Shown here in pieces: positions 4,690-29,303 of a DNA stretch of 64,000 nucleotides. The notes beneath the pieces were generated by a model. That model made no database searches, was not told where the DNA came from, and saw only the letters and a list, made by a program, of their open reading frames with translations. Made by a program: the position numbers and the translations under genes. This stretch comes from Anaerolineae bacterium (GTDB lineage: Bacteria > Chloroflexota > Anaerolineae > Aggregatilineales > J027), in assembly GCA_021463865.1 (NCBI GenBank), contig JAJTXY010000017.1, forward strand, positions 20,635-84,634, given 5' to 3'. Numbering within the stretch: the first letter of the stretch is position 1; every line of letters starts with the position of its first letter.

Positions 4690-5541
4690 ATGGCGGTAGA
4701 TAGACAAACCATAACCCGGCTCACCCGTAATGAGGCAGATATGGCTTTCAAAAAGCGGGTCGAAACCATTTTTGAATGGCTTCCCCCCAGCGATGATCAG
4801 GTGATTTTGGATTGTGCCTGTGGGCGTGGTTTCTATTTGAATTACTATCGGCACATCAGCAGTGTGAAGTTGATTGGGTTGGAACTCGAAGGTGACATTA
4901 TCCGCAAGGCTCAAGGCAATATCGGCCACTTGCCCGATATTTTGTTGACCCAAGCCAATATTTATCACCTGCCCTTTGCCGACAGCAGTTTTGATGGCGT
5001 CATCCTCAGCGAAATTTTGGAGCATGTGGATAACGATGTCGCGGGCCTCAAAGAGGTCTACCGGGTACTGAAACCGGGCGGGGTCGCCGCCATTACCGTG
5101 CCCAACGCCAATTATCCGTTCCTGTGGGATCCCATCAATCGCACGCTGGAAAATGTCTTTCACACCAAAATACGGCGCGGGCCACTGGCAGGCATTTGGG
5201 CCAATCATGTCCGACTCTATACAATCGAGCAATTGCGGAAAGCGGTCTCTTCTGCTGGATTCATGATAGAACAGGAACGTGCCTTTACGCACTACAGCTT
5301 TCCCTTTATTCATAATCTGGTGTATGGTCTAGGCAAACCCTTGCTCGAAAGTGGCCTTATGCCTGATAATCTGGCGGCGGCGGCTGACCGGACAACTTTT
5401 GATCAAAATGATGGCAGTTGGCACAATCCGATTAATCTGGGTTTGGCGGTCTTGAATTTTTTTGACCGTCCCAACAAATTGGATGAGCCGCTGCATCGGA
5501 GTACGGTAAACTTGTGCATCAAAGCGCGTAAAAAAGCCTAA
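4690..5541 (+). CDS. Class I SAM-dependent methyltransferase
   Basis: 283 aa. The ATG immediately follows the upstream TAA. Motif I VILDCACGRGFY, then FDGVILSEILEHV and VLKPGGV. Confidence 0.85.
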   Translation: MAVDRQTITRLTRNEADMAFKKRVETIFEWLPPSDDQVILDCACGRGFYLNYYRHISSVKLIGLELEGDIIRKAQGNIGHLPDILLTQANIYHLPFADSSFDGVILSEILEHVDNDVAGLKEVYRVLKPGGVAAITVPNANYPFLWDPINRTLENVFHTKIRRGPLAGIWANHVRLYTIEQLRKAVSSAGFMIEQERAFTHYSFPFIHNLVYGLGKPLLESGLMPDNLAAAADRTTFDQNDGSWHNPINLGLAVLNFFDRPNKLDEPLHRSTVNLCIKARKKA

Positions 5542-14300: not shown

Positions 14301-15430
14301 GGTTGGCAGCACTCGGAGGTTTGTTATTCCTGCCTACCGTTCTATTGGTAACATTGGTCATGGGGGTCTTTGGGGAATATCGTGTCTTGATTGCCGCCCT
14401 GCCCCTCTTTGCGTGGTGCATTTTCCTATTCCTGCTCCCCGGCCAAAGTGCCGTCGAACGTGCCATCTACACCATTGCCGCCCTCGCCCTTGCCTTAACG
14501 ATGGCCGTCGAACTCGTGGTACTCGAAGGCGATATTGGCCGTCAAAACACCGTCTTTAAATTCTATATTCAGGCATGGCTATTATTCAGCATCGCCTGTG
14601 GTGTCGGATTGGCATGGCTCGTCCGGGCCGCCGAACAATGGAGCATTCCGACACGCGGGGTTTGGCAAACCGCTACCGCCATTTTGCTCAGTATCGCCCT
14701 GCTCTATCCCATTATGGCAACCCAAGCCCGTTTCCTTGACCGCATGAACGCAAGGGAAACCCCGCTGACCCTTGACGGCATGGCCTATATGGAAGTCGCC
14801 CCACATGGCGAATATGCCGACCCACAAGATCAAACCACCAGCGTTTGGTTTAATCTCAGCGGTGATTACAAATTGATTCGCTGGATGCAGGACAATGTAC
14901 AGGGCACGCCCACCATTATTGAAGCGCAACTCAGCGAATATCGTTGGGGTAGTCGTGTCAGCATCTACACGGGCCTGCCAACGATTTTGGGCTGGAATTT
15001 CCACCAGCGGCAGCAGCGTAATATCAATCTGCTCAATAATATGGTCTGGAATCGCGCCAACAATGTGCAGGCATTTTATACCACTACCGACATTCAAACC
15101 GCGTGGGATTTAATTCGCTTCTATAAAGCCGAGTATATTGTGGTCGGCACGTTGGAGCGTATTCAATACCGCGACTTCCGCAGCGACCCTGATGGCACCT
15201 TCCAGCAGCATCAAGTGCCGGGGATTGCCAAGTTTGACACAATGGTCGAGATGGGCCTGCTCGAAGTCGTTTATGAAAATCCGGTGTGTGTCATGCCCGA
15301 TATTCGAGACGTTGAAAAATGCCCGCCGGAACGCATCAGCACTGACAAAATCTATCGCGTCATATCCGACGTTCGCACTGTTTTGGATTTACCCGCCAAT
15401 CAACAAATTTTTGGCAAGGTCACACCCTAA
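8318..15430 (+). CDS. Giant (2370 aa) tandem Chlor_Arch_YYY / DUF2298-type integral membrane protein
   Basis: One uninterrupted ORF starting 7 nt after the upstream stop. Module 1 has HLHPDERF (Asp codon at 8636) and a degenerate GFYVYG (8876-8890). Module 2 has GEKPMDFAYLNG and the canonical INYYYWG (YYYWG at 12809-12823). A ~550-aa non-hydrophobic insert lies at roughly nt 10650-12320. The C-terminal soluble domain contains GLPTILGWNFHQRQQR. Confidence 0.75.
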   Translation: MTDAENRFPEPIETSTGLEPDLEPDTPSPESLSDEGDGASIATPQFDYREASTSEKAALARRYEWGIAKIPWADVFCALVLVALMAGGYWMRSVGRNWDDYTHLHPDERFLTQVASEIHSDSPLRLSQGDTIAAKAACDKKYPLPPADVLNAMSPADQAEAYAEAGKGGYFDTACSNLNPHNVGYGFYVYGEFPTFNTRIWAEIYNDLTGESWWTSYNAVQLVGRAASSVADTLTILLIFLIGTRLFNRWVGLFAAGFYAFAAFPIQQSHFWTADVFTSFWVVLTIYFAVLVMDNSSAYRQRFAALPWVVGGIAIWVWEIVAQQSDSKWLHNLASTDTEFYVPLLIYGAVLLTMGFVTSLAAEQRRTGLETATFAVSVAGLFILAISGIIGWFGAIATAFVALVLMLLWISGVQTLGGYTGFWTWIAAAYGLWVFDGLAHYDQPTLTPLAVYLVFFVILAFISSIIRQLKPASTQYPAHLVIIIFLLVLLAVWSAAALIDGTISVEGFFACLVLGAIIAGANVAGLQDYAGFGLAFGASLAGRVNVAPLLGLVLLAVIIRGLFTIDRRALHFERQQQIARLMVGLIIAAVLTIMAFRVLQPHAFNGPHIYNLSINSYWQDDLSEVRGQVSGKSDSPPNHQWANRVPYLFPLQNIVLYGLGVLLGVSAVVGVIWAVVNILRRQPNWTRVAIPVAWAVVYFAYFGKNWVTTMRYFLPIYAVLTLMASWALWEAITISYRRLKIKPTTLRRLAFGLSTLTLAIVTGYTAVYGYAFTSIYRHQLTRVAASQYFQEFVPGDFGLWVKRSDGSERMINVGIYPTAQFPQIAHIADGESMTVEIAPETNSELVSVVLHRLGDPNRDPDLELVSLQIWSKDTVQGRVLLGEKTINADLNAAGGDFGTEYSLEFNPPLILAATLDSVTPITYEVVITAEQGGPIMLSANISDPILPINPSHISMYLRDPIADSLNIQELDLPVLDELSNMAYFTAGSRQEYSFISNSNGVIDRIEMPHVGDPIADPDPETMRVLLVDDLTGLQTGGQVTGDFNMVQDGLRTFGVPATIEFAEPFPVIKGNVYKLVVMPDDFLGIFGQVVVTELPWDDPVPTKVCPLPSDIEFSKNNASGLCDITDAGIDPYGSHYLGVETHIGEWDDVEQKRDLLLHYLNIGDYFTISSNRFYDTLSRIPSRWPMTNRYYEALFSGELGLELVESFTSYAKVGPFEWPDEVLPTENTWPPNWRNEFEAEEAFHVYDHPAVFIFRKTPEYSPEKAAEILDVELRRADQAYGALLTDAEPINIIKWDAFDATQSPTALQIPQFQQETQREGGTWSEMFNHNSILNKYQVVGLIVWWLLMVAVGWMILPMLALLFPGLPDRGFGAGKLLGWILVAWASWFTSSLGIRMWNQSGLLALLLILALINAGIAFWKRRDLLEFIRERRRHLLIIEGISLALFLLLIGVRLGNPDLWHQNLGGEKPMDFAYLNGILRSTTFPPIDPWFTGGYINYYYWGWVLVGAPIKALGIVPTIGYNFAVPTIFAMTGIGAFSVAYNLVQWNNERHRQEPKSREPHGPLGNAYIAGVAALTLTVLVGNLDTVRVFGNAVAQQGGWKGPQILSTVRYNKAVSEFEEENGRLPDPEEDKDLREAAENYNLLDEIKFEFDKASAWLDGFQEGLPDILDGKPLPMASNRWYWGPTRVIGDLPEQRGHNAINEMPYFTFLYADLHAHMVAMPMTLLVLLLVLGEIFGAGRGLRGPITSVFAMLLLGLVVGLLKPTNTWDWPTYMGITVAGLTFATWLGQGRLRGEGEPVAFYYRLRRLLDLRNILSLWPLLLVIPMGMMLRSGLYLYQNRSYENKLHQNLIPTYCQNLPEDILQSQIPPACDGLLKPEITINSIAMWGVGAVGLVIVLYIAAMVLMGNRFDRRGILGWIGSLVAFGSFSLIAIYPYERFFATAYGKILPWESDKTPLWAYVDIHGVFLFIIFSLLLWQTIRWLKSYKVGELRQYGLAALGGLLFLPTVLLVTLVMGVFGEYRVLIAALPLFAWCIFLFLLPGQSAVERAIYTIAALALALTMAVELVVLEGDIGRQNTVFKFYIQAWLLFSIACGVGLAWLVRAAEQWSIPTRGVWQTATAILLSIALLYPIMATQARFLDRMNARETPLTLDGMAYMEVAPHGEYADPQDQTTSVWFNLSGDYKLIRWMQDNVQGTPTIIEAQLSEYRWGSRVSIYTGLPTILGWNFHQRQQRNINLLNNMVWNRANNVQAFYTTTDIQTAWDLIRFYKAEYIVVGTLERIQYRDFRSDPDGTFQQHQVPGIAKFDTMVEMGLLEVVYENPVCVMPDIRDVEKCPPERISTDKIYRVISDVRTVLDLPANQQIFGKVTP

Positions 15431-15432
15431 AA

Positions 15433-18400
15433 ATGGCACAAATTCAGCAATCAACTTCATCGCGCCGCAATTCCAGCGCCTTCAATCCACTTTGGCTGTT
15501 ATGGCTCGTCCCGGCAGCAGCAGTGGTCGTGTCTATCGCCAACTATTTTGGCTGGTTCTATTTCGATGGCGTCATTCCCAAATTTGACAGCCTGCGCTGG
15601 GAATTATTCACCAATTGGACTGGACGTGAATTGGGGGATGTACTGGTCTGGTGGCTACTGGTGACATTAGCTGGCGCGGCGGTGTTCCCCTTGATGTTCC
15701 GCCTCATGTCCGGCCTCTCCGATAGGGGTTACACATTGGCGCGGGCCGCTGGTTTGATGCTGATCGGTTATATTTTCTGGTTTCTTGCCAGTATCGGCGT
15801 CCTGCGTAATGAAGTTGGCGGGATAGTTTTTGCATGGATTGTGGTCATTATCTTAAGTTTGGTTGCATGGTTTCGCGGGTCAGATTGGCCTGCGAGGGCG
15901 GAATTCCGCGCATGGCTACGCGAACATCTGCCCCTAATTGTTTTCACCGAAGTATTGTTCCTCGGCGCGATGATTATTTGGGCCTTTGTCCAAGCCCATA
16001 ACCCCGAAATTACCTCCACCGAAAAACCGATGGAGATGGCTTTTATCAACGGCGTCCGCAACTCTGCCACCTTCCCACCCAAAGACCCTTGGATGGCAGG
16101 CTACGCCATCAGCTATTACTATTTTGGTTATGTCATCACCGCCTCGCTTGCCGATTTAAGTGGTGTGACTACGGGAATCGCCTTCAAATTGGTCAATCCG
16201 TTGCTGTTCGCCATGACCCTCACGGGCATTTTGGGCATTACCTATAATCTCGTTCGGGCGGGTGGACGCACATGGCGCGTGGGCAATCGTCATGCCGCCC
16301 TTGCCACAGGCCTATTAGCCGCGTTTTTCATCACCATTATGGGCAATCTAGGCACGCTGTTGGTCGAAATGCCCTATCGCGGATACACCGCCGAAACTCC
16401 GCTTATCAAAGATGTAGTAAACGCGGATTACTTCGATTTTTGGGATGTGCGGGATCGTACCGGGCCATTTATGGTGCAAAATGTCACCGATCCCCAAACA
16501 GGCCTGCCCGCCGTACATCTGCTGGATACCGATACCTATGTCAGCCCTGAAGACCCAATAACGCAGAATTACGTGTTTGCCCCGGATGAAGACCGCGACG
16601 GCATTCCCAATTGGGATGACACCGACGATACCGAATTAGAAGAAGCAGGCAATCACTGGGATTACTGGTGGTGGTTTAAACAAAGCCGCCTTGTTTATGA
16701 CAAAAAATTCAGCGGTGGCTATGAGGAAGCCATTACCGAATTTCCCCAATTCAGTTTTATCTTGGGTGACAATCACCCCCACGTGTTGGCCCTGCCCTTC
16801 ACCCTCCTAATCATTGGCCTAGCCGCCAGCCTTGCTATGCGACCCACCAAACTCGCTAATTGGGAAATCATCGTGTATGGCGTATTTTTCGGCGGCATCA
16901 TCTTTATGAATGCGTGGGATGCCCTCTATCTAGGTCTGCTAGTTGGGGCGGAGGCCTTGCGCCGCTTGATGCACAATGGCGGTTTGAATGGCTTTGGGGA
17001 ATTAGGCCGCGTCATTACCCTTGAGACCCGCCGCAGACAAAATCTCTATCTACTTGGGCCAGTGTTCATCGTCCTGCTGTTGTTTTTCGCCACCTCCGAT
17101 ACCTTAGGTGATGGCTTATCCATTGGTGAAATCCTTATTGGCCTGATACTGGTCGCCCCCGTCACCCTGATCGTCAATTGGGCCTTAGATGACAACGATT
17201 GGGGATCCGTCGTTCGGCTCGGTGGGTCGCTGGCGATTCTATTTGTCATGCTGTACCTGCCGTGGCTGGTCAGCTTCACCAGCCAATCGCAGGGCATGTC
17301 CGTCAATTTGATTTACCCTACCCGCTCCCAACAGTTATTTTTGCAGTTCGGCATTTTCGGTCTGCTGATTTTGCCCTTCATTTTCCAGCAAATGGGACGA
17401 GCGGGGCGGCGTATTCGGTACGGTGCGGTGATCGGGTTAATCTTGCTCGGTTTGATCTTTGCCATCGGTGTCCCGTTGTTCTCTGCCGCTATTGTGGACA
17501 GTCGAACCTGCCCTCTGCAAAAAGGTCAAGAAGGGTTAATCGGAACACTCGCTGAACCCGCACGTTCCAATTGCCAAGCACGTTTTCGGCTGTTTAGTGA
17601 ACTACGCGACGACAATGAAATCCGCCAAGTCAAACTTTTGGGGCAGGACTTAGGCGAACTCTCCAAGACACGCTTGACCCTCTATACCGTCTATCAACGC
17701 CGCCTCGGAGCCTTGATTGGTCAAATAGTGCTGCTGACCATCGCCACCATTATCATGATGCGCCTGTTTGCCCGCAATCTGAACTCCCATGACACCGATA
17801 AACCTACCCCGATTATTGATTACAGCCCCGGAACTGGGGTCGCCCTCTTGCTCATTGCGATGGGCGTGGTCACGACTTTTGTTCCCGATGTCATCTACCT
17901 GATTGACAACTTCGGCAACCGCATGAACACCATCTTTAAGCTCTATTATCAAAGTTGGACGTTATTCAGCATCGGCGCGGCCTATGCCGTCTTTGCCATT
18001 TTAAACGGTGCTCCCAATCGAGCCGATGAGGAAAATCGCATCGCCCCGGTATCCGTTTTTGTGCTGCGCGGGGTCTATGTGGTGGGCCTGCTCTATCTTT
18101 TGTGGGCCGGCGCATTGTATCCTTATTATGCGGTGCGTTCGCGGGCACTATACGAAACCAATCTAGATAATCAGTTAGCGATGATAGAGGCTTGCCAATC
18201 CACAGGTGCAACCGACTGCCCCGGCATCCCCGAAATTTCACTAGATGCTGGCCCGACCATCATACAGGCGATAGGTACAGACGAATGGAAACTCATCAAC
18301 GAATGTTTTATGAAGCTAGAACCCCGCAAAAATGATGCGATTTTGGTCGAAACCCCCGGTGGCGGTTATACAGCCCATCTAGGCCGAGTCAGCATGTTGA

Positions 18401-18696
18401 CAGGGATTCCCACCCTGCTCGGTTGGGACAATCATGAGCGGCAGTGGCGCGGCGATACCTACAACGATGTGGCAGGAAATCGTGAAGGCGATATTTTTAC
18501 CCTCTACACCACTGAGGATTGGAACACCGCGCAGGATATTATAGATAAATACGGCATTGATTATGTCATGGTCGGCAATTCGGAGTTTAATGCCTATGGC
18601 GGTCAAGACTCCGACGGCCTCAGCAAATTTAGCGAACTTTTAGACCCGGTTTGTCATGAAGGCAGTGTGGCCCTCTATCGGGTCAGTGCGGAATAG
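15433..18696 (+). CDS. Chlor_Arch_YYY / DUF2298 family integral membrane protein (single module)
   Basis: 1087 aa with the ATG 2 nt after the upstream stop. TEKPMEMAFINGVRNSATFPPKDPWMAGYAISYYYFGY (YYYFG at 16114-16128). It is colinear with module 2 of the upstream gene: DNHPHV vs DLHAHM, FKLYYQSW vs FKFYIQAW, GIPTLLGWDNHERQWR vs GLPTILGWNFHQRQQR. Confidence 0.8.
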   Translation: MAQIQQSTSSRRNSSAFNPLWLLWLVPAAAVVVSIANYFGWFYFDGVIPKFDSLRWELFTNWTGRELGDVLVWWLLVTLAGAAVFPLMFRLMSGLSDRGYTLARAAGLMLIGYIFWFLASIGVLRNEVGGIVFAWIVVIILSLVAWFRGSDWPARAEFRAWLREHLPLIVFTEVLFLGAMIIWAFVQAHNPEITSTEKPMEMAFINGVRNSATFPPKDPWMAGYAISYYYFGYVITASLADLSGVTTGIAFKLVNPLLFAMTLTGILGITYNLVRAGGRTWRVGNRHAALATGLLAAFFITIMGNLGTLLVEMPYRGYTAETPLIKDVVNADYFDFWDVRDRTGPFMVQNVTDPQTGLPAVHLLDTDTYVSPEDPITQNYVFAPDEDRDGIPNWDDTDDTELEEAGNHWDYWWWFKQSRLVYDKKFSGGYEEAITEFPQFSFILGDNHPHVLALPFTLLIIGLAASLAMRPTKLANWEIIVYGVFFGGIIFMNAWDALYLGLLVGAEALRRLMHNGGLNGFGELGRVITLETRRRQNLYLLGPVFIVLLLFFATSDTLGDGLSIGEILIGLILVAPVTLIVNWALDDNDWGSVVRLGGSLAILFVMLYLPWLVSFTSQSQGMSVNLIYPTRSQQLFLQFGIFGLLILPFIFQQMGRAGRRIRYGAVIGLILLGLIFAIGVPLFSAAIVDSRTCPLQKGQEGLIGTLAEPARSNCQARFRLFSELRDDNEIRQVKLLGQDLGELSKTRLTLYTVYQRRLGALIGQIVLLTIATIIMMRLFARNLNSHDTDKPTPIIDYSPGTGVALLLIAMGVVTTFVPDVIYLIDNFGNRMNTIFKLYYQSWTLFSIGAAYAVFAILNGAPNRADEENRIAPVSVFVLRGVYVVGLLYLLWAGALYPYYAVRSRALYETNLDNQLAMIEACQSTGATDCPGIPEISLDAGPTIIQAIGTDEWKLINECFMKLEPRKNDAILVETPGGGYTAHLGRVSMLTGIPTLLGWDNHERQWRGDTYNDVAGNREGDIFTLYTTEDWNTAQDIIDKYGIDYVMVGNSEFNAYGGQDSDGLSKFSELLDPVCHEGSVALYRVSAE

Positions 18697-18707
18697 GATT
18701 ATTTTGC

Positions 18708-20996
18708 ATGGAAGTACCCATGAATTTAGAATCCCGTCCTACCGTCAGCGGAATACGGCTCAATATTTCCGGCGAAGTGCTGGCCTATCTTGTCTTGCTG
18801 CTTTTGGCGGGTGCGTTACGCCTGATCTCGCTCGATCACGCCCCCCTAACCAACCGCGAGGCCCATGAAGCCCTTGCCGCCTTGCGTTTGGTCAATACTC
18901 GTGTGCCGGGGGATGCGATGGTCGCCGACAGCCCTATGATGGCCTTTGTCAACATGCTCCTATTTGTTTTCTTGGGCAATGCCGACAGCGTGGCACGCTT
19001 GGGTACAGCGATAGTTGGCACATTATTGGTCTTAGGCCCACTGCTGTGGCGGGGTTTTTTGGGGCGCGTCACGGCCCTAAGTTTCGCCTTACTGCTGACC
19101 TTTTCGCCGGTAGCAATGGCGGCTTCCCGCACAATGGGCGCGGCAACATGGACGATGGCGGTGGTGTTTATCGGTGGCTGGTGTCTCTGGCAGTATATCC
19201 AGACCCGCAGCAAAGCCTATGCCATCAGCACGACAATGGCCGCCGCCGCCATTTTGTTATTGACCGAAACGACGGGCATCATCACCGTCATCGGCCTTGC
19301 CTGTGGTTTGGCGCTGGCCTTGTGGTCATCCCGCAACCTGATTTCTGAAGCTGACGCCAAATCCCCCGCCGATACCCTGCGCGAGATTTCCAAATCATGG
19401 CCTTTAGTCGAAGGCCTGATGGGTGCATTAGGCTTGGTATTGGTGGTTGGCACGGCCCTATTCTTCGCCCCATCTGGTCTCACCGCTGTGGGTAACACCA
19501 TCAGCCAATTTATTGATGGCATCAACGAGCGCACGCCGGGTGTCCCCTACCCTTACGCTTTTGTCGTCAGCCTGCGTTACGATCTCGGCCTTGTGTTGTT
19601 TGGGTTGGTTGGCCTCTACTTTGCCTTGAGTGAGGGCAATTTCCTAACCCGCTTTTTTGCTGGTTGGTTTATCTGGGCCATTCTCGCCGCCATCCTTTAC
19701 CCCGGCGCGACGCCTGATGCCGCCCTATGGATTACCATGCCTGCCGCTGGTTTGGGGGCGTTTATCATCACCCGCATGTGCCACAGCGCCCAAACGGGTT
19801 ATTGGATTGTGCCAAATTGGGGCATCCCGGCTCATGCTATCGGGGTAGCGCTCTTACTAACGGCCCTCTCAGTGAATGGCTTGGTCGTGGGGCGTGCCTT
19901 ACAGCGCGAAGCCTTCCCCGGCAATTACAAGCCCATCAATTTTACTGCCACCGAAAAATCACAGGGGACACTGACTTCTGGCGCACGCATTGGATCATTT
20001 TACGATCCGCAAAACTCTCTCAGCACTTTCCCGCTGTATGTCACCGTTCAGCCAACCGCGCTGGTAGTGCAGATTTGGCGTCTCGATGGCAACATCGCCC
20101 CCCAACTAACCGTTCTCGACGAAAACCAGCAGGTCATCTATGGCCCATTCGCCTACCCCGCCGACAGCGGCAAGGGCATTGTGGAACGCTTAGATTTACC
20201 AACAGGCAATTATTTCCTAAATGTCACGCCTTCCGCTGAGACCTTAAACGAACGTGGGCAATATCTGGTTATGACCTATCCCGCCGATTACAAAGAACGG
20301 GACAGCTTCTACTTGGATATTCCCTATATCCTTGCCACGTTCCGCATTTTGCAGGCTAATCCCCCCTTGCCTGTCACCGCACCACTGGTGTTGTTGTTCT
20401 CTCTCCTCCTACTGATTATTCTATTTTTCTTGGTGGGCAGTCTATGGGGCAGCCGGGCCGCGTGGCGTGGATTGGGTTTTGGTATGTTGGCCTATTTCAG
20501 TTTGTATGGTATTGGATTGGGCTGGCAAGCAAGCGTGACCTTTGCCGATGACCCACGTGAACTTTGGCAGAGCCGCGACACCGCCGAGAATTATGATGCG
20601 CTAGTGGACACCTTGAAATTTATGTCGCGTCAGGACAACGGTGAAGAATATCGTATTGACATCACCGCCCAAGCGCCGGATGATGGTGCATTAGCATGGG
20701 CACTGCGTAATTTTGAGCGCACCCAGTTCGTCGAAGGGATAGGCATCGAAATCAACTCCGCCGTTGTCATCGCGCCCCCCACTCCAACCGGGCAACCGTT
20801 GGACATCGGCGCGGATTATGTGGGTCAAGACGTCATCCTGACCCGTCATTACGAACTCAGTTGGCTCAATTGGGTGGATGCCCTCGGTTGGCTGACCCTG
20901 CGCGAAACTCGTTATCCAACCGTGCCAGATCAACAGATGATGTTATGGGTACGTAAAGATGTGTATGGGGTGGATGAAGTCCCCCTCGGCCAGTGA
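18708..20996 (+). CDS. Polytopic membrane protein, divergent TIGR03663-like paralogue lacking the family's conserved DE/HGP motifs
   Basis: 762 aa. The N-terminal ~170 aa align by eye with the 1754-aa protein (LGNADSVARLGTAIVGTLLVLGPLLWRGFLGR vs FGPSDFSARVYPAVLGVLLVMFPLLFKRWIGR). Where the larger protein has HDESLH, HGP and SRYIRED, this one has NREAHE, DSP and SRTMGAA. A soluble beta-rich insert is present (LPTGNYFLNVTPS, possibly PPC-like). Confidence 0.6.
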   Translation: MEVPMNLESRPTVSGIRLNISGEVLAYLVLLLLAGALRLISLDHAPLTNREAHEALAALRLVNTRVPGDAMVADSPMMAFVNMLLFVFLGNADSVARLGTAIVGTLLVLGPLLWRGFLGRVTALSFALLLTFSPVAMAASRTMGAATWTMAVVFIGGWCLWQYIQTRSKAYAISTTMAAAAILLLTETTGIITVIGLACGLALALWSSRNLISEADAKSPADTLREISKSWPLVEGLMGALGLVLVVGTALFFAPSGLTAVGNTISQFIDGINERTPGVPYPYAFVVSLRYDLGLVLFGLVGLYFALSEGNFLTRFFAGWFIWAILAAILYPGATPDAALWITMPAAGLGAFIITRMCHSAQTGYWIVPNWGIPAHAIGVALLLTALSVNGLVVGRALQREAFPGNYKPINFTATEKSQGTLTSGARIGSFYDPQNSLSTFPLYVTVQPTALVVQIWRLDGNIAPQLTVLDENQQVIYGPFAYPADSGKGIVERLDLPTGNYFLNVTPSAETLNERGQYLVMTYPADYKERDSFYLDIPYILATFRILQANPPLPVTAPLVLLFSLLLLIILFFLVGSLWGSRAAWRGLGFGMLAYFSLYGIGLGWQASVTFADDPRELWQSRDTAENYDALVDTLKFMSRQDNGEEYRIDITAQAPDDGALAWALRNFERTQFVEGIGIEINSAVVIAPPTPTGQPLDIGADYVGQDVILTRHYELSWLNWVDALGWLTLRETRYPTVPDQQMMLWVRKDVYGVDEVPLGQ

Positions 20997-21030
20997 GGGA
21001 TTTCGCCCTCCACTGTGTAGTATAGGATTT

Positions 21031-21630
21031 ATGGACACAAAACACGACGACCCAATGCTCAATCCGTTGATAACCCGCATTCAACGCGGCGATCAAACGG
21101 CCTGCACCGACCTGTATGACCTATATGCGCCGGGTGTCTATCGCTTGGCCTATAGCGTCTTGCTGCATCGTCAGGATGCGGAAGATGTAGTACAAGAAGT
21201 GTTTGTCTATGTCTTTCGCAATCTCAAATTGTATGATCCCAATCGGGGTCAATTCCGCACATGGCTTTATACGATTACCATCAGTCGCTGCCGCAATGCC
21301 CGCCGCCGCAAGATGCTGCCCACCGTCGCCCTAAGCGATTTATTATTACTCGGCCTTGAACCGCACGGGCCAGAAAGTGAAAATCCGGAGGCCGCCAGTC
21401 TGCGTGAGGATGCCAACCGCGTCTTGGCCCAAGCCCTCAAAACGCTTTCATCCCGTCTGCGTGAAGCCGTCGCCTTGCGTTATGGGCAGGGGTTGACCTA
21501 TCGTGAAATGGGGGAGATTTTGAACATCCCACCCAAAACCGCTGAGTCGCGCATTCGGCTGGCCCATGAAGCCCTCCGCAGTGCGATGCAGCCCCATGAT
21601 ATTGCCTTACTAGAGGAATTTTTAGGATAG
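21031..21630 (+). CDS. ECF (sigma-70 family, group 4) RNA polymerase sigma factor
   Basis: I place the start at ATG 21031 (MDTKHDD...), not the listed 20959, which overlaps the upstream gene. Region 2: DAEDVVQEVFVYVFRNLKLYDPNRGQFRTWLYTITISRCRNARRRK. Region 4: LREAVALRYGQGLTYREMGEILNIPPKTAESRIRLAHEALR. Confidence 0.85.
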   Translation: MDTKHDDPMLNPLITRIQRGDQTACTDLYDLYAPGVYRLAYSVLLHRQDAEDVVQEVFVYVFRNLKLYDPNRGQFRTWLYTITISRCRNARRRKMLPTVALSDLLLLGLEPHGPESENPEAASLREDANRVLAQALKTLSSRLREAVALRYGQGLTYREMGEILNIPPKTAESRIRLAHEALRSAMQPHDIALLEEFLG

Positions 21631-21632
21631 CT

Positions 21633-22268
21633 GTGGACATCAAGGAGCAACTTTTAGCCTATCTGGAAGGGACTCTCACCTCGGCTCAACGGCGCGAGGT
21701 CGTGCGGCGTTTGGCTACCTCGCGTCAATGGCAGGCCGAGCTGGAGGCCATCCAATATTCCCAATCCCAACTCAAGCGCGAAATGCCTGCGTTTGGCTGT
21801 CCTACCCACAAGCAGTTAACCGCGTTGCTGCCGGATATATTGGAAAAATCCAAACAGCCTTCCCGCCTCCATGAAAAGATGGATTGGACACAAGGCGGGA
21901 TGCTGTTGTGCATGATCGCCGTAATGTTGATGATGGTTCCCATCTTGATTAAGGCCCAAACAGCAGTTTTGGCTTCGACCAATCTTAAAAATATTCCGGC
22001 GACCACCAATACGCCTGCCGCCATTCGGGTCAACACGCTCGAAGTGCCCCGCGCAGTGGTAGCGTCGTCCAGCGGGGCGAATGTGGTCGAAGCGGTGGCC
22101 TATCGCATCCAAGCGGATTTCCAATATTGTGATCTAAGCACGGGCCTCTTTTTACCCATTTCATCCCGCACCCGCTCGGATGTCCGGGTTGTTGGGTTGA
22201 CCCCTGCTCCTGTACCCGGTTCGACACTTGAACCAAGCCGCGAGGCCGCCCTTGAAACTCGTCAGTAA
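21633..22268 (+). CDS. Putative membrane-spanning anti-sigma factor (non-zinc type)
   Basis: 211 aa with a GTG start 2 nt after the sigma-factor stop. The N-terminal helix LLAYLEGTLTSAQRREVVRRLATSRQWQAELEAI resembles an anti-sigma domain but lacks the HxxxCxxC zinc ligands. One TM segment (GGMLLCMIAVMLMMVPILI) and a ~100-aa extracytoplasmic tail. Confidence 0.5.
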   Translation: MDIKEQLLAYLEGTLTSAQRREVVRRLATSRQWQAELEAIQYSQSQLKREMPAFGCPTHKQLTALLPDILEKSKQPSRLHEKMDWTQGGMLLCMIAVMLMMVPILIKAQTAVLASTNLKNIPATTNTPAAIRVNTLEVPRAVVASSSGANVVEAVAYRIQADFQYCDLSTGLFLPISSRTRSDVRVVGLTPAPVPGSTLEPSREAALETRQ

Positions 22269-22336: not shown

Positions 22337-25300
22337 ATGGCAACATTAAACCCAACGGCCCAAAACGACGGGCCACCCGTCTTAGAAAAAGCGCTTCAGC
22401 GACTCTATACGCTCAACTTTGAAACCATTGCCTACCTCATCATCTTTGCGGTGGCGGTCATCAGTCGGTTTTGGGATGTCGGCGCACGTGTCATGAGCCA
22501 CGACGAAAGTCTCCACACCTACTATTCGTGGAAGCTCTATGACGCAGGCGATTTTCAACATACCCCCCTGATGCACGGGCCAGTGATTTTCCATATGGTC
22601 GCGTTTTTCTATTGGCTGTTCGGCCCCAGCGATTTTAGTGCCCGGGTCTACCCGGCGGTGCTGGGGGTGTTGCTGGTCATGTTCCCGCTGTTGTTTAAGC
22701 GTTGGATCGGCAGAACCGGGGCGATCATCGCCAGCATCGGCCTGATTATCTCACCAATGATCTTGTTTCACAGCCGCTATATCCGTGAAGACGTCCCGTC
22801 CGTTTTCTTCACGCTGGTCATGTTCTACGGCATTATGCAATACATAGATGGCGAAAAACCGCGTCGTCCGGTCTGGCTGGCGGTGATTGGCGGCGGTATG
22901 CTGCTTTCGCTTGCCAGTAAAGAAGTCGCCTTTATGTATATTGCCATTATTGGCAGCTTCTTCACCCTCTATTGGATTTTGCGGATCATCCAAGACCTGA
23001 ACTTCAAACGCCAAATTCCGGTTGATGATGTTTATGTACCCAACCCAACCATTGACGATGAACAAGAGGGAGTCAAAGCTACCCCCGTTGAAGCCCCTAC
23101 CCCGCTTTGGCAATTGCTGTTTGGGCATCTTGTCACGCTCGCCTTTGCAGGCATTTTGGGGTATCTGGCAGGTCATCTATTGGGCATCTTTACCGAAGCA
23201 CTGCAACCGGGGAATATGATGCTTGGCCCACTCAGTCTCACTCAAGGCCGATTTTTCACACTGGTTTTTGCTGCCGTCTTTTTTATCTTGGCAGAATTGT
23301 TTGGCCCAACACGCGGGCTATTAGTCTTCTTCCTCGGTCGTGGCGCACGCCTCGTCAAAACCCGCCCCGAACCCAGCGTCGCCCAAATGGTTGTCAATTT
23401 GCTGGCCGATGCTCGTAGCACCATTATTTTGATTACGGCGGGGTTGGTGATTGGTGGGGTTTCGGCGTTGTGGGCCTTCAGCATTTTGGACATCATCAAG
23501 CCCGCAACCGTCTTTGAAGAATTCACCTTTGCCCAACGCATCCAAGAGCAGGCCGCCACTAACCCCAATATTATCAATGAGCTACCCGGCCCCGGCCAAA
23601 AAATGGAGGCCATTGATGTTCGTGTCAATGAAACCGAACTCGGTCACGCGGCAACATGGTTGCTCGTCCCCATCGGCGTGATATGTTTCTTGACAGTTTT
23701 GATTGCTGCCCTCAAAACCCCGACCTCTTTGCGATTTACACCGGGGGATGCGGCTGTTGTGATCGGCGGGGTAGCGCTCAACGTTATCGTGCTATTTTTG
23801 AATGTCGTCGGGCCAGATTTTGGTCTACCCAAAGCCGCCCTATGGATTCTGCTGCCCATTGACCTGATGGTGGTGGCCTTCCTGCTGCGCCCCCCTTGGC
23901 AAGATGTCTTAATTATCTTCCTTGTAGCCACGATCTTTTTTGGGGTGCTCTTGGTAGCTGAACGGCGCAGTTTGAAGACCGAAGAAGGCGAACAGCAGTC
24001 CCAATTTGCCGCCGACCCCAACGCCGCTGAGATTCAGCAGGATGTTCAACACGACAACAAATATATATGGTTCACATGGCTGGCCGGGACAATGATTACC
24101 GCAGCCGTACTATTGACCCGCATGTTCACCAACTGGTGGGATTTCCTGAATCGCCAACCCGTTTTTGATGTCTTGATTGTGATTGGCACATTAGCCTTTC
24201 CGTGGTTGGCGGCCTTCCCGCTGTTTTGGGCCGGCTATACATTGGACGCCGCTCCACTCCCGGATGACACCTTTAAAGCTGCCATATTAGTCGTCATTCC
24301 ATTTTTCTTGGTGAGTGCTTCTGTCGGCTTGGCATGGAATTATCGCCTCTGGCCCATCCCACTAGCAGTATTTGCCTTGTTGTTTGTCGTCTTCTTTACA
24401 ACCTTTTTTACCAATGGCAATGGCGTCGGAACAGGTTTGATCGGCTCACTGGGTTATTGGCTAGAACAACAAGGGGTGCGACGCGGCAGTCAACCGCAGT
24501 ATTATTACACCTTCCTTGAAATCCCGGTCTATGAATTTTTGCCGACCATCATTGCCAGCATCGCGGGGTTTGCGGGTCTATCAGGTCTCTTTGAGTTCCG
24601 CCAAAAAGCCAACCGCTATATTCGTGAGGTCGCCTATCGCCAAAACGCCCAATCTGTCGGGGAAACAAGTAGCGTTGAAGCCGCCCTCACTCCCGAACAA
24701 TCGCGTTCCCTTTATGAAATGATGGGTAGCGAAGGCGAAACACTCACCAGCATCTCAACTGAAATGATTGAGATGGCCGAACGCAGCTATTCTGCTGGCG
24801 AGACACAACTAGGGTCTCCCACCGTCGCAACCAATGTAGCAAGTCCAGCCTCCCCAACCGAAGCAGTAGCTACAGATGAAAATGGAAACAATCCCGCCCT
24901 GCCCGATTTAAGCGATTGGTTGGCCGAGCATGGTGAAAATGGCAATTATAGCCTACCCAATTGGGCACGCCCCTATGACCATGACGAAGAAATGGCTAAA
25001 CGCACTAATGGCGACCCGACCTATTTAGGCGGCTTCCCCTTCCTGCAATTCATGGGCTATTGGAGCGTGATGATTATCGTTGCCCTCACGATGGCAGGCG
25101 AAAAGATGCCTTGGTTGACCACCCATATCAGCGTGCCATTGATCTTTGTGGGCGGCGCTTATCTGGGAACGGTTATTGATAAAATCCGCTGGTCAAGTGT
25201 CAAAGCCAGTGGTTGGGTATTGTTGGCCCTCGTCGTACCCGTATTCCTAATTGCCCTTGAACAACTATTGATGCCAGCCTTCACAGGTGGGACTGACCTG

Positions 25301-27601
25301 CCGTTTCAAGGCCGTTCTCAAATGGAATTGGAAGCTACCGGGCAGTGGATCGCCGCGCTTATTGGCGTCATCATTACAGGCTATTTCATTGTACAGTTGA
25401 CCATCCACACTGGGTTTGCACAGGCCCGTAAACTCATCTTCGTTTCGGCGACCATTTTGCTGGCGGTTCTGACCGCACGGGTGGCGTGGCTCGCAGCCTA
25501 CATCAATTACGACTACCCCACCGAATTTATGGTCTATGCCCACTCCGGCCCAGCGGTCAAGACGGTCATGGAAGATGTCTACTACCTAGCCGAACGCCAC
25601 CCCGACGGCATGAACATGCGCATTGTCTATGATGATGAGTCGTCATGGCCCTTCACATGGTATCTACGCGATTTCCGCAATTACGGCTTTATGGTAGGCG
25701 AGGCCACCACTGTCAGCAGCAACCCTGCCCAGTTAGACGGCGCGGAAGTGGTCATCGTTGGCAACAAGAAAAACGCCGAAGTCGAACGCATCCTCGGCAA
25801 AGATTACTATCGCTTCGACTATATCCGGTTGTGGTGGCCCATGCAGGCCTATTTCAATCTGGATTACAACCGTATCGCCAATCTTTTTGAATCCGACACC
25901 ACCAACCCTGCCGCCAGCTATTATCGGCGGGCCATTTGGGACATCTGGTGGGCACGCGACTACAAAGGCTATGGGCAGGCTGAATGTATTGAGCGGGATA
26001 TGCGCCAATGTCTGATTGAAGGCAGCGAAGACGCCTATGACCCAACCTGTATCCAGCGCGTCACCAGTGAATGTGCTACTGACAGCCGCTATAACGTTGA
26101 AAACTGGCCCGTCTCCGATGCCCTGTATGTCTATGTCCGCAAAGATTTTGTTGCCACCATTTGGGACAGCGGTCTTGATGGACAAAGTGTCACCGAACGT
26201 TTGGTTCCCGATCCCGAAAACGTGGTACAGCGCGAAGTTGTCCCCAGTGTCGCATTTGGTCAAGGCGAAATAACCGAGCCACGTGATATTGAAGTAGACG
26301 CCGAGGGCAACCTGGTCGTGGCGGATAACAAGAACCGCCGTATTGCCATCTACTCCCCCGACGGCACCTTCCTACGAGAAATGGGGGTTGGTCAACTGAA
26401 TGAACTATGGGGTGTCGCGGTCAGTCCGGTGGATGGCAACATCTATGCCGCCGACACGTGGAATCATCGCGTTGTCGTCTTTAACCCCGCAGGCGAATTG
26501 ATTGATACCTATGGCCGTAATGGGGTCATTGTCGATGGCACGGACTCAATCGAAGGTTTCTATGGCCCACGCGATGTCGCGGTTGATAAGAACGGGTTCA
26601 TCTATGTGGCCGACACAGGCAACCATCGTATCCGCGTCTATGACCAAAATTGGAACTATATCCGCGACATTGGGTCACGGGGCACAGGCGCAGGGCAGCT
26701 TCAAGAACCTGTGGGCATCGCCATCCACCCGATTTCTGGCGAACTCTACATCGCCGAAACGTGGAATCAGCGTGTTTCTGTCTTCAAGCGCGACGGCATC
26801 TATGTCCGTAGTTGGGATGTCAATATGTGGGAAGGAACCCAGTTCTCGCCCAATCGTCCCTATCTAACCATTTCACCAGATGGCACCCTCATTTTTGTCG
26901 GCGATATGGACAGCAGCGGCGGCAACAGTGGGCCGCGCATCGTCGGTTATGATCTCAGTGGTCAAGCGATGATTGCCTTCAATGGGGGTCTCGCCGTAGA
27001 CGCGAATAATCTCGACCAAAACGGCAATATCGCAGGCGTTTTGATTGTAGGAGGTCTGGCCTTCGGTCAAAACGGGCAACTATATGTGGCCGACGCAGGC
27101 ACATCGCGCATTGTCGTCTTTCCGCCGACGGGTATCACTGGCAACCTCGCCCCCATCCAAGACCCCAGTTATGGCACGGGCGAGAACACCTCCACAGGCA
27201 GTGATACCACGCAGGGTGAAACCTTCCTGACCACCGCCGACATGGAATTTTTGGATGCGTTTGGCCTATCCTATTGGCGTATCCTCAGCACAGGTGATTA
27301 CGAAGGTTACAAAACCCTCTTCTGCCCGGAAGTGCTCAGTTATATTCCAAATCGAGATACCTTCCTCAACACCATCGCCAAGAATTATTTAGGTGTGAAC
27401 GTAGATCAGACCGTCTCGGTGCCTGAAATCGTGGATGGCAAAGTCGTCATCCGGTGGAGCGGCTACATCGTGCGGGGTGTTGGTTCCGGCAATGAACAGG
27501 TCGAAACCATCAACACCGTCGCGCCCCTTGAGATGCAGCGCAGTGGTGCGGGTTGGTATATCTGTCCCGAACGACCCGTTTTCCGTCCCGGTGGCGGTTA
27601 A
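22337..27601 (+). CDS. Giant (1754 aa) TIGR03663-like GT-C-type membrane protein fused to a six-blade NHL beta-propeller
   Basis: N-terminal region: RFWDVGARVMSHDESLHTYY (DE at 22502-22507) and PLMHGPVIFH (HGP at 22574-22582), the invariant dipeptide and tripeptide I recall for TIGR03663. Many TM segments. An S/T/E-rich linker lies at about nt 24660-24920, followed by a second TM block, a soluble region (IVYDDESSWPFTWYLRDF), six NHL repeats and a ~130-aa C-terminal domain. Confidence 0.7.
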   Translation: MATLNPTAQNDGPPVLEKALQRLYTLNFETIAYLIIFAVAVISRFWDVGARVMSHDESLHTYYSWKLYDAGDFQHTPLMHGPVIFHMVAFFYWLFGPSDFSARVYPAVLGVLLVMFPLLFKRWIGRTGAIIASIGLIISPMILFHSRYIREDVPSVFFTLVMFYGIMQYIDGEKPRRPVWLAVIGGGMLLSLASKEVAFMYIAIIGSFFTLYWILRIIQDLNFKRQIPVDDVYVPNPTIDDEQEGVKATPVEAPTPLWQLLFGHLVTLAFAGILGYLAGHLLGIFTEALQPGNMMLGPLSLTQGRFFTLVFAAVFFILAELFGPTRGLLVFFLGRGARLVKTRPEPSVAQMVVNLLADARSTIILITAGLVIGGVSALWAFSILDIIKPATVFEEFTFAQRIQEQAATNPNIINELPGPGQKMEAIDVRVNETELGHAATWLLVPIGVICFLTVLIAALKTPTSLRFTPGDAAVVIGGVALNVIVLFLNVVGPDFGLPKAALWILLPIDLMVVAFLLRPPWQDVLIIFLVATIFFGVLLVAERRSLKTEEGEQQSQFAADPNAAEIQQDVQHDNKYIWFTWLAGTMITAAVLLTRMFTNWWDFLNRQPVFDVLIVIGTLAFPWLAAFPLFWAGYTLDAAPLPDDTFKAAILVVIPFFLVSASVGLAWNYRLWPIPLAVFALLFVVFFTTFFTNGNGVGTGLIGSLGYWLEQQGVRRGSQPQYYYTFLEIPVYEFLPTIIASIAGFAGLSGLFEFRQKANRYIREVAYRQNAQSVGETSSVEAALTPEQSRSLYEMMGSEGETLTSISTEMIEMAERSYSAGETQLGSPTVATNVASPASPTEAVATDENGNNPALPDLSDWLAEHGENGNYSLPNWARPYDHDEEMAKRTNGDPTYLGGFPFLQFMGYWSVMIIVALTMAGEKMPWLTTHISVPLIFVGGAYLGTVIDKIRWSSVKASGWVLLALVVPVFLIALEQLLMPAFTGGTDLPFQGRSQMELEATGQWIAALIGVIITGYFIVQLTIHTGFAQARKLIFVSATILLAVLTARVAWLAAYINYDYPTEFMVYAHSGPAVKTVMEDVYYLAERHPDGMNMRIVYDDESSWPFTWYLRDFRNYGFMVGEATTVSSNPAQLDGAEVVIVGNKKNAEVERILGKDYYRFDYIRLWWPMQAYFNLDYNRIANLFESDTTNPAASYYRRAIWDIWWARDYKGYGQAECIERDMRQCLIEGSEDAYDPTCIQRVTSECATDSRYNVENWPVSDALYVYVRKDFVATIWDSGLDGQSVTERLVPDPENVVQREVVPSVAFGQGEITEPRDIEVDAEGNLVVADNKNRRIAIYSPDGTFLREMGVGQLNELWGVAVSPVDGNIYAADTWNHRVVVFNPAGELIDTYGRNGVIVDGTDSIEGFYGPRDVAVDKNGFIYVADTGNHRIRVYDQNWNYIRDIGSRGTGAGQLQEPVGIAIHPISGELYIAETWNQRVSVFKRDGIYVRSWDVNMWEGTQFSPNRPYLTISPDGTLIFVGDMDSSGGNSGPRIVGYDLSGQAMIAFNGGLAVDANNLDQNGNIAGVLIVGGLAFGQNGQLYVADAGTSRIVVFPPTGITGNLAPIQDPSYGTGENTSTGSDTTQGETFLTTADMEFLDAFGLSYWRILSTGDYEGYKTLFCPEVLSYIPNRDTFLNTIAKNYLGVNVDQTVSVPEIVDGKVVIRWSGYIVRGVGSGNEQVETINTVAPLEMQRSGAGWYICPERPVFRPGGG
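26279..27127 (+). repeat. Six tandem NHL repeats (predicted six-blade beta-propeller) inside the 1754-aa ORF
   Basis: The blades are recognisable by eye: NLVVADNKNRRIAIYSPDG, NIYAADTWNHRVVVFNPAG, FIYVADTGNHRIRVYDQNW, ELYIAETWNQRVSVFKRDG, LIFVGDMDSSGGNSGPRIVGYDLSG, QLYVADAGTSRIVVFPP. Confidence 0.8.
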
Positions 27602-28130: not shown

Positions 28131-29303
28131 TTATGCTCGAAATTGCAGTACCACTGACTTCCCCAAGCGAATCATATCGCCATTCTCAATTGGCACAACT
28201 TCACCTTGCAGCAACGGCTTATCATAAAACACTGTGCGTTCGCGCACATCTAAATTTTCCAGATAATAGCGCCCTGTCTCGTCATCTAAAAACACCATAC
28301 ACTGACGTCTAGCAATCGCCCTGTCCCGCAGCGGCACATCCACCTTTACCCCCCGTCCAACCGTCAGCGCAAAATCATCCATCGGCCAAATCTGCCCCAC
28401 ATCACGTTTAGCCTTGCTTTGAATGACCTCCAAATAAACTTCCGGTGTTTGGGCGGCCTCCTCAGCCTCAATTTTGGCACGGGTCTGAGCCATCTGACGC
28501 CGCTGTTCAAGTCTCCATTGTCGGCGCTGTCGTTGAGTCACAATTCGCCCAATCAATGCAACGGCCACTACGACAATCAACAAGCTGACCAGCCACGCTT
28601 CGGCAGAAATTCCACCAGTCGTGGAGTCGCCCGATTCCGAGGCGGCAAAAAGCAGCAATACCACCAGCATCAACCCAATCAATACCCCAATCGTATTAAG
28701 AATCATTCGCAAAAACGTGGGTTTTGGGCGAGGGGGTAAAGGCTCTTCTGCTGGCTTCGGCTTAGAGGGGGTTGGAGGTCGCCGGGGGGGTGCAGCGATC
28801 GGGCGTGGTGTTGGTTCGGGACGTGCTGCCCGACTTGCCGCATCTGCCCGCGAGAACATTGGCTCAGAAATTGGCTGGCCCTCATTAGCAGCACTCGGCG
28901 CAGGCCCAATCCATTTCTGCAATTGTGCCATACCATCCGGCTCTCGAAAATCGGCCCGTCGCTGACGGAGTAAATCAAATGGCATCCAATGTTCTGCGCC
29001 GGGGGGTGCATCAGGGGCTATGCAAGCAATAACCGGACGCCCTGTCCGTAAAAAAGGTCGCCACCACGCCTCAAATGCAGCGGCGGATTCCCCCAATGCG
29101 CTTTCTTTGGAGACCACTGCCAGCAAATGGGTAGCTTTTTGTAACGCGGCGGTGGTTTTGCGCTGCAATATGGCATCCTCAGGGTCGCTCTCCGGCGGCT
29201 CCATATACAGCGTATATCCCGCCTCACGCAGTTGTTGATAAAACCCTTGCGCCCATTCCGCGTCAATCGGCGCGTAAAGGAGAAATAATTTTGGACTGGT
29301 CAT
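28131..29303 (-). CDS. TIR-like domain / proline-rich linker / 2 TM / FHA-like domain protein
   Basis: 390 aa. The N-terminus KLFLLYAPIDAEWAQGFYQQLREAGYTLYM...ATHLLAVVSKES fits a TIR_2-like pattern. The linker is P/K/R-rich and is followed by two TM helices. The C-terminus FALTVGRGVKVDVPLRDRAIARRQCMVFLDD...LENLDVRERTVFYDKPL...GDMIRLGKSVVLQF fits an FHA pattern with substituted pThr-binding positions. Confidence 0.6.
   Translation of the reverse strand: MTSPKLFLLYAPIDAEWAQGFYQQLREAGYTLYMEPPESDPEDAILQRKTTAALQKATHLLAVVSKESALGESAAAFEAWWRPFLRTGRPVIACIAPDAPPGAEHWMPFDLLRQRRADFREPDGMAQLQKWIGPAPSAANEGQPISEPMFSRADAASRAARPEPTPRPIAAPPRRPPTPSKPKPAEEPLPPRPKPTFLRMILNTIGVLIGLMLVVLLLFAASESGDSTTGGISAEAWLVSLLIVVVAVALIGRIVTQRQRRQWRLEQRRQMAQTRAKIEAEEAAQTPEVYLEVIQSKAKRDVGQIWPMDDFALTVGRGVKVDVPLRDRAIARRQCMVFLDDETGRYYLENLDVRERTVFYDKPLLQGEVVPIENGDMIRLGKSVVLQFRA

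Follow-up and report, generated by a model that had tools for sequence, protein, structure and literature searches.

Glycosyltransferases of the GT-C fold build the glycoconjugates of the cell envelope, among them N- and O-glycoproteins, lipid A modifications and the mycobacterial arabinan, and their choice of acceptor is usually set by domains appended on the outer side of the membrane. GT-C enzymes with such acceptor-binding outside domains include the PMTs with a MIR domain, the TMTCs with TPR repeats, AftD and EmbC with carbohydrate-binding modules and PglB/AglB. The PMTs have 11 transmembrane (TM) helices, and ArnT, whose acceptor is lipid A, has 13. The exemplar of the TIGR03663 family, which carries the name "flippase activity-associated protein Agl23", is Agl23 of Haloarcula hispanica, and it is described as flippase-associated and not as a transferase (PMC11182771). 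Here we describe a member of this family that is fused to an NHL beta-propeller. Its gene lies in a stretch of 64,000 nucleotides of an Anaerolineae bacterium (Chloroflexota, contig JAJTXY010000017.1, positions 20,635 to 84,634), in the following called the window, to which all coordinates refer. It occupies positions 22337-27601 of the forward strand (+), as do all parts of the protein given below, starts with ATG and codes for 1754 amino acids (aa). The protein combines a TIGR03663-family membrane part, modelled with the GT-C fold, with an alpha/beta domain, a six-bladed NHL propeller and a tail that is most likely NTF2-like.

Judged by the curated score, the 1754-aa protein is a member of TIGR03663, but an atypical one. 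It reaches 204.9 bits (E 2.3e-60) against the NCBIfam model with its curated cutoff of 126.25 bits, in agreement with a preliminary description of this DNA, made from the letters alone, which had proposed a TIGR03663-like N-terminus. The DE (22502-22507) and HGP (22574-22582) motifs named there correspond to D56-E57 and H80-G81-P82. The match is made in two stretches, aa 32-216 on profile positions 3-184 and aa ~901-1115 on positions 294-432; positions 185-293 are unaligned, and there is no contiguous match over the 435 positions. The two stretches are about 680 residues apart, so that the family module is split in this protein. In terms of the profile, these residues replace its middle and about 640 more are added at the C-terminus. 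Pfam PMT_2 (32.5 bits, gathering score 26.1) and PMT (30.9 bits, gathering score 22.7) were passed as well. We did not assign the protein to the PMTs (GT39), because Pfam scans of the whole protein and of its segments gave no match to the MIR beta-trefoil. For the variable TM region, the linker rich in S, T and E, the alpha/beta domain and the protein's own tail, which are described below, the Pfam and NCBIfam scans returned no match.

To the family score comes the evidence from structure prediction, for which AlphaFold2 models were built on alignment subsets of 44 and 46 sequences (44 for aa 1-1200). The model of aa 1-1200 has a mean predicted local distance difference test score (pLDDT) of 77 and a predicted template modelling score (pTM) of 0.82, and its 14 best Foldseek matches in the PDB are all GT-C enzymes (probability 0.97-1.00). 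ArnT is the best of them (E 1.3e-4), together with Pmt4, AglB, Pmt1/2 and STT3, and AftD, ALG9 and EmbB follow lower in the list. The matches to Pmt4 extend over 213-226 columns with a root-mean-square deviation (rmsd) of 3-4 Å and 18-22% identity. Family score and fold matches agree with the GT-C-like membrane domain of the preliminary description, and on the model the membrane part has the GT-C fold as in ArnT, the PMTs and STT3. In a marginal profile alignment with yeast Pmt1, R103 is paired with Pmt1 R138, the motif SRYIRED with SRYILLD of Pmt1 and K195 with a lysine of Pmt1. When the PDB was searched with a profile from the full-length alignment, the match list was dominated by NHL domains.

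The conservation pattern points to an active site on the outer face. In the following, a residue is called invariant if its column is identical across an alignment of 120 homologs that reaches down to 34% identity. The conserved N-terminal GT-C module comprises aa 28-220 with TM1-6 (22418-22996) and is covered by profile positions 3-184 of TIGR03663, by PMT_2/PMT and by the Foldseek match to Pmt4. In its first outside loop S54-H55-D56-E57-S58-L59-H60, H75, P77 and M79-H80-G81-P82 are invariant, and so are R103, R147, Y148, R150, D152 and K195 elsewhere in the module. D56-E57 follows directly after TM1 in the predicted first extracytoplasmic loop, at the start of a helix (aa 55-70), and we infer that this candidate pair forms the catalytic acidic residues. 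The most conserved outside loop is found further downstream (aa 693-733, 24413-24535). In alignment and model it holds two amphipathic helices (aa 696-715 and 722-732), its invariant residues are N693, G696, G700, L705-G706-Y707-W708, Q711, R716, Q719-P720-Q721 and Y723-Y724, and the mean identity over aa 691-720 is 82% in the family alignment. A third loop, G921-E922-K923-M924-P925-W926-L927, is invariant throughout. Overall, almost all invariant residues belong either to loops predicted to be outside or to the alpha/beta domain, which is the expected look of a working active site at the outer face.

Whether the propeller lies on the same side of the membrane as the DE loop, a point raised in the preliminary description, was addressed by counting the TM helices heuristically from model helices and hydropathy, on the assumption that the chain starts as usual for GT-C enzymes, with its N-terminus inside and its first loop outside. 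This count gives 23 TM helices, 18 in a first and 5 in a second block with a disordered linker between them, as the preliminary description had outlined with its two TM blocks around an S/T/E-rich stretch at about 24660-24920. The N-terminus is thus predicted to be inside and the C-terminus outside, with the DE loop, loop 693-733, the GEKMPWL loop and everything past aa 1056 outside and the linker inside. Lysine and arginine make up 31 of the 181 flanking residues in inside loops versus 12 of 213 in outside loops (family averages 24.9 and 11.5). TM helices are gained and lost almost only in pairs, so that nearly all family members have an odd number of them (19, 21 or 23 in 118 of the 120 homologs). 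Finally, six of the seven cysteines are located in the C-terminal soluble part and occur together in sets of four and two, a pattern expected of disulfides outside the cell. Charge bias, paired changes and cysteine pattern all support a propeller on the side of the DE loop.

Between the N-terminal module and the second TM block the membrane part is built from segments of very different conservation. The variable TM region (aa 221-577, TM7-13, 22997-24067) contains a small outside beta-hairpin loop in the model (aa 387-431) and two sites at which helix pairs vary, aa 258-325 (nt ~23108-23311) and aa 470-516 (nt ~23744-23884). TM7 and TM8 are absent together in 25 of the 120 homologs; TM11 and TM12, modelled with a pLDDT of 53-59, are present in only four to five of them, the closest relatives. 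The following block of TM14-18 (aa 578-752, 24068-24592) is conserved with an occupancy of 0.99-1.0. The linker rich in S, T and E (aa 753-900, 24593-25036) begins with the basic stretch EFRQKANRYIREVAYRQ, and its low family occupancy, its count of lysine and arginine and a pLDDT below 50 for most of aa 778-871, a range that spans nt 24660-24920, suggest a disordered cytoplasmic segment. With the second TM block (aa 901-1056, TM19-23, 25037-25504), which includes the GEKMPWL loop, the second part of the TIGR03663 profile (positions 294-432) begins.

About 700 residues are predicted to follow outside the membrane. The model of aa 1050-1754 has a mean pLDDT of 83 and shows an alpha/beta domain, a propeller of 24 strands and a confident tail. 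Based on invariant columns, model and cysteine pattern, the alpha/beta domain comprises aa 1057-1300 (25505-26236). Invariant in it are D1059, E1063, Y1067, H1069, W1104, P1105, W1108, Y1109, R1164 and W1166-W1167-P1168-M1169-Q1170, and it carries an insert with four cysteines (C1217, C1225, C1238 and C1246). The propeller (aa ~1305-1597, approximately 26249-27127) is recognized by Pfam NHL in five stretches (E 3.1e-35), and its 24 modelled strands form six four-stranded blades. It matches the NHL domains of Thin, TRIM71, TRIM2, Brat and PknD with TM-scores of 0.78-0.86 in Foldseek, and TRIM71 with E 1.4e-37 in a phmmer search against the PDB. The fifth blade is non-canonical and highly conserved (VNMW...NRPY...DMD). 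A low-complexity linker (aa 1598-1632, 27128-27232; pLDDT below 50 at aa ~1617-1627) leads to the tail (aa 1633-1749, with the C-terminal FRPGGG 27233-27598), for which four helices and a five-stranded sheet are modelled with block-mean pLDDT values of 82-97. The tail has a conserved pair of cysteines, C1663 and C1743. It has no Pfam match of its own, and a profile search of the PDB with the tail gave only weak matches, for example to ketosteroid isomerase (E 1.2). Among 16 aligned tails of the closest clade, however, 9 match SnoaL_4 (best E 7.2e-6) and 4 match DUF4440, and for this reason the tail domain is most likely NTF2-like at the level of the family.

For this outer part, the six NHL repeats seen at first (26279-27127) are borne out by profile and model. 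The "soluble region" in front of them is present as well; it is a conserved alpha/beta domain that starts within the TIGR03663 profile. The weak guess of an NTF2-like tail of about 130 residues holds for the family but is not backed by a Pfam match of the tail itself.

The NTF2-like tail is confined to the closest clade, and other members carry acidic low-complexity tails or an FGE-sulfatase domain. FRPGGG is nearly invariant at the extreme C-terminus of the clade with NTF2-like tails (P0001-P0020; here the last six codons, 27581-27598), and the acidic tails of many other family members, rich in Thr, Glu and Pro, finish in G (...AG, ...VG) or in F (...DVF, ...DDF). A common rule for the C-terminal end, if these endings do share one, would hint at a processing or sorting signal. 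In a sub-clade (P0040, P0042, P0046, P0050, P0053, P0061-P0064, P0066, P0070, P0071, P0074 and P0076-P0078) an FGE-sulfatase domain (PF03781, ~300-640 residues) follows the propeller instead of the NTF2-like tail, which indicates that outside domains are exchangeable at the site behind the propeller.

The fusion of GT-C part and propeller is real and common. PMT_2 is found in all 120 listed homologs (34-96% identity) and NHL in 119 of them; the sole homolog without NHL is a short protein from a 5-kb contig. As the homologs (E = 0) have the whole architecture in common, its features are not due to chance. The homologs come from many independent assemblies, including that of the cultured Aggregatilinea lenta. 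Using the invariant peptides MSHDESLH and GEKMPWL, we scanned the GTDB species genomes and obtained at least 572 confirmed matching stretches, and nearly all of the 80 listed are labelled with the class Anaerolineae or with an order or family within it. The NHL region comes directly after the GT-C part in 77 of the 83 related loci; of the remaining six, four end before they reach it. A mis-assembly of two genes, against which the preliminary description had cautioned, is ruled out by this recurrence of the fusion in hundreds of independent assemblies, and the domain search proposed there for PMT_2 together with NHL finds the pair in nearly all listed homologs. It was not aware of any described GT-C plus NHL architecture, and the literature searched indeed contained no paper on one. 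This does not make the architecture rare: a large Anaerolineae family has it as its usual form, and databases label the members automatically as "TIGR03663 family protein", "Agl23" or "mannosyltransferase/beta-propeller", so that the design is less surprising than supposed at the outset. One member was found in a metagenome-assembled genome (MAG) labelled Oceanobacillus sp. (L025, DATGQJ010000082.1, 5.7-kb contig), whereas all other loci are from Chloroflexota; a mis-binned short contig is the likely cause.

Compared with the described systems, the 1754-aa protein shares with Agl23 the curated family model in its N-terminal (profile 3-184) and C-terminal (294-432) modules, a comparison made through the profile. 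Both are polytopic, and like Agl23 the protein would act on polyprenyl- or dolichyl-phosphate-linked sugars at the outer face. It differs from Agl23 in the middle of the profile, where extra TM helices and the cytoplasmic linker are found, and in the additional outside residues, by which the alpha/beta domain is extended and the NHL propeller and NTF2-like tail are added. With the PMTs (Pmt1/2 and Pmt4; 6p25, 9e61, 9i5k) it has in common the GT-C fold (213-240 columns at 3-4 Å rmsd in most matches), an acidic DE pair in the first outside loop, the Pfam PMT/PMT_2 matches, the aligned R103 and Pmt1 R138 and an appended outside domain that is thought to help with the acceptor. In contrast to the PMTs, the domain is a C-terminal NHL propeller and not a MIR beta-trefoil inserted in a loop, the number of TM helices is 23, and the similarity is marginal. 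ArnT (GT83; 5ezm, 5f15) is a bacterial GT-C enzyme with a C-terminal periplasmic alpha/beta domain and takes its sugar from undecaprenyl phosphate, which compares with the polyprenyl-phosphate-sugar proposed for our protein; it has no propeller, and the global superposition is poor (rmsd 29 Å over 554 columns). TMTC1-4 with their TPR repeats and AftD/EmbC with their carbohydrate-binding modules likewise join a GT-C membrane core to a large extracytoplasmic binding module of another type, and AftD and EmbB are among the fold matches. The closest counterpart of the propeller in location is PknD of Mycobacterium tuberculosis (1rwi/1rwl), a membrane-anchored protein with a six-bladed NHL propeller outside the bacterial membrane; there it is attached to a single-pass Ser/Thr kinase. 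We know of no ligand for the NHL domain of PknD.

Taken together, we favour with about even confidence that the protein is a GT-C envelope glycosyltransferase that depends on a polyprenyl-phosphate-sugar and works on the outer face, where the propeller positions the acceptor. A polyprenyl-phosphate-linked sugar would be bound at the outer leaflet in a pocket made of the first outside loop with SHDESLH and HGP, R103, R147/Y148/R150/D152, K195, loop 693-733 and the GEKMPWL loop. With D56/E57 as the acidic residues of catalysis, the sugar would be passed to an extracytoplasmic acceptor. This acceptor would be recruited or positioned by the C-terminal outside assembly over the site, consisting of the alpha/beta domain and the NHL propeller and, in the closest clade, the NTF2-like domain. 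As a natural guess, the cluster of GT-C-like genes with its ECF pair, which is described below, probably also makes this acceptor, be it a surface protein or a polysaccharide of wall or sheath. The acceptor-binding outside domains of known GT-C enzymes count in favour of the propeller as acceptor module, and PknD (PDB 1rwl) demonstrates that a bacterial NHL propeller can be extracellular. Fold, family membership, order of the domains, conservation, fusion and synteny are shown by the data, whereas topology, the catalytic role of D56/E57, the type of donor and the role of the propeller are what we infer.

Several points weigh against a transferase of this kind. The Foldseek E-values are about 1e-4 at best, and good superposition is confined to ~220 residues; the profile of the N-terminal 210 residues matches yeast Pmt1 only marginally in the PDB profile search (E 0.018). 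N- and C-terminal parts were modelled separately, and the C-terminal model has a pTM of 0.54. The topology comes from our own heuristic helix count. Among the open reading frames of the window scanned with Pfam (683-43874) there is no GT2 polyprenyl-phosphate-sugar synthase, and no activity, donor or acceptor is on record for any member with the GT-C plus NHL architecture. Moreover, H. hispanica Agl23, the only studied TIGR03663 protein, is described as a hexose-phosphate-dolichol flippase candidate (PMC11182771).

The last point leads to an alternative that we consider unlikely, though the strongest of the rivals: the protein might be a flippase or flippase-associated factor for the translocation of polyprenyl-phosphate-linked sugars, like Agl23, with outside loops that bind the head group and a propeller that docks partner enzymes or the acceptor. 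It would fit the TIGR03663 membership above cutoff, and HhAgl23 is reported to suppress yeast rft1-delta and, as a purified protein, to translocate M5GN2-PP-Dol in liposomes (PMC11182771); the four or five other GT-C-like genes of the cluster could cover the transferase steps. However, the protein shares its fold with GT-C transferases, an acidic pair of the PMT type and R103 are kept without exception, the ~700 residues of outside domains have no obvious use in a flippase, and the match extends to only 320 of 435 positions of the profile, with ~680 residues in place of the middle.

Even less probable is a bifunctional enzyme in which the propeller itself is catalytic, as a lactonase, a lyase or an enzyme of the strictosidine-synthase type, and modifies or trims the glycan or peptide handled by the GT-C part. 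A match to SGL (SMP-30/gluconolactonase) above the gathering score (E 1.2e-8), a weak match to peptidyl-alpha-hydroxyglycine lyase (PDB 3fvz) and the conserved fifth blade, which suggests a specific site, speak for it. On the other hand, the SGL match spans only ~80 residues, no set of metal-binding or catalytic residues was identified in the propeller, and the best matches by far are the non-enzymatic NHL binding domains of TRIM71, Thin and Brat (E 1e-37; TM-score 0.85).

The gene stands at the end of a long run on the same strand (+), which starts with a PMT_2 protein of 540 aa (683-2305). It is followed by an LPG_synthase_TM protein, an MprF flippase-like membrane protein (2411-3457), a GT4 glycosyltransferase (3454-4689) and a methyltransferase (4690-5541), and it is possible that these three genes at the head of the run (2411-5541) supply a lipid-linked sugar. 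Next come a polytopic protein of 913 aa without a Pfam or NCBIfam match (5569-8310), a double DUF2298 protein of 2370 aa (8318-15430), a DUF2298/TIGR03662 protein of 1087 aa (15433-18696) and a TIGR03663-like paralog of 762 aa (18708-20996). An extracytoplasmic function (ECF) sigma factor (20959-21630), syntenic in most related loci, and a single-pass anti-sigma factor (21633-22268) directly upstream of the NHL-bearing gene complete the run. Aggregatilinea lenta, an Anaerolineales MAG and about 55 of the 83 related loci (L001-L083) share the order of double DUF2298, DUF2298, paralog, sigma factor and GT-C-NHL gene, and it holds across Anaerolineae genera at 32-60% identity. The paralog falls short of the TIGR03663 cutoff with 85.6 bits. 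While the counterpart of R103 is still an arginine, SHDESLH is replaced by NREAHE, and both the DE pair and the RYIRED motif are missing; from these replacements the paralog may be catalytically different or inactive. A scan for promoters and terminators around the 22337-27601 gene gave results no better than shuffled sequence.

Very unlikely to our mind, like the catalytic propeller, is a sensor or scaffold. Its propeller would sense an envelope ligand, as has been proposed for PknD, and the protein would signal to the neighbouring ECF pair or serve to organise the cluster's other giant membrane proteins, with a GT-C part that is catalytically silent. The conserved synteny of the sigma factor and the structural match to the NHL sensor domain of PknD speak for it. 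On the other side, the candidate catalytic residues are invariant across the family and argue for a working active site; the clearly degenerate paralog, by contrast, no longer has the DE pair, and the 1754-aa protein contains no known signalling domain.

Some further observations concern the neighbours. The 913-aa protein has about ten hydrophobic segments and a stretch LDGVPPEMTSDHIEK that is reminiscent of GT-C first-loop motifs, and three related loci (L058, L066 and L077) have it too, again upstream of their double DUF2298 gene. Invariant or nearly invariant YYY motifs are found in predicted outside loops both of our protein (QPQYYY, aa 719-724, nt 24491-24508) and of its DUF2298 neighbours (SYYYFG and NYYYWG; aa ~226-232 in the protein encoded at 15433-18696). 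An equation of QPQYYY with the "YYYxG" motif of the DUF2298/TIGR03662 neighbours was rejected, as sequence context and position differ. Downstream, a gene for a protein with TIR and FHA domains (28131-29303, -) converges on the NHL-bearing gene, and a TIR-FHA gene has the same relative place in the Anaerolineales MAG (L002, 16122-17153), where genes for a methyltransferase and a DUF3417 glucan phosphorylase are likewise kept.

The cluster also suggests a bolder extension of the transferase reading, which we put forward tentatively and regard as less probable than the transferase itself. Five or six giant GT-C-like proteins encoded in one cluster with the ECF pair (the PMT_2 protein, the 913-aa protein, the double DUF2298 protein, the DUF2298 protein, the TIGR03663-like paralog and the TIGR03663-NHL protein) could form an undescribed extracytoplasmic glycan-assembly machine of the Anaerolineae. 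The GT-C protein with the NHL propeller would be its terminal, acceptor-specific enzyme, with the propeller capturing a surface or sheath protein or polymer. If this is true, it would be a solution to acceptor recognition that has not been seen in any characterised GT-C enzyme.

On present evidence the GT-C plus NHL protein overturns no established idea. Its occurrence bears on the question of whether the TIGR03663/Agl23 proteins are flippases, as the report on the archaeal exemplar has it, or transferases, as fold and invariant acidic pair suggest. The large family, the cultured carrier Aggregatilinea lenta and the conserved cluster make the question of function testable. Anaerolineae are abundant in sludge, sediments and mats, and their envelope is poorly understood. 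If the NHL propeller is indeed an acceptor module, it would be a new type of recognition module among GT-C enzymes and would give a first handle on this envelope.

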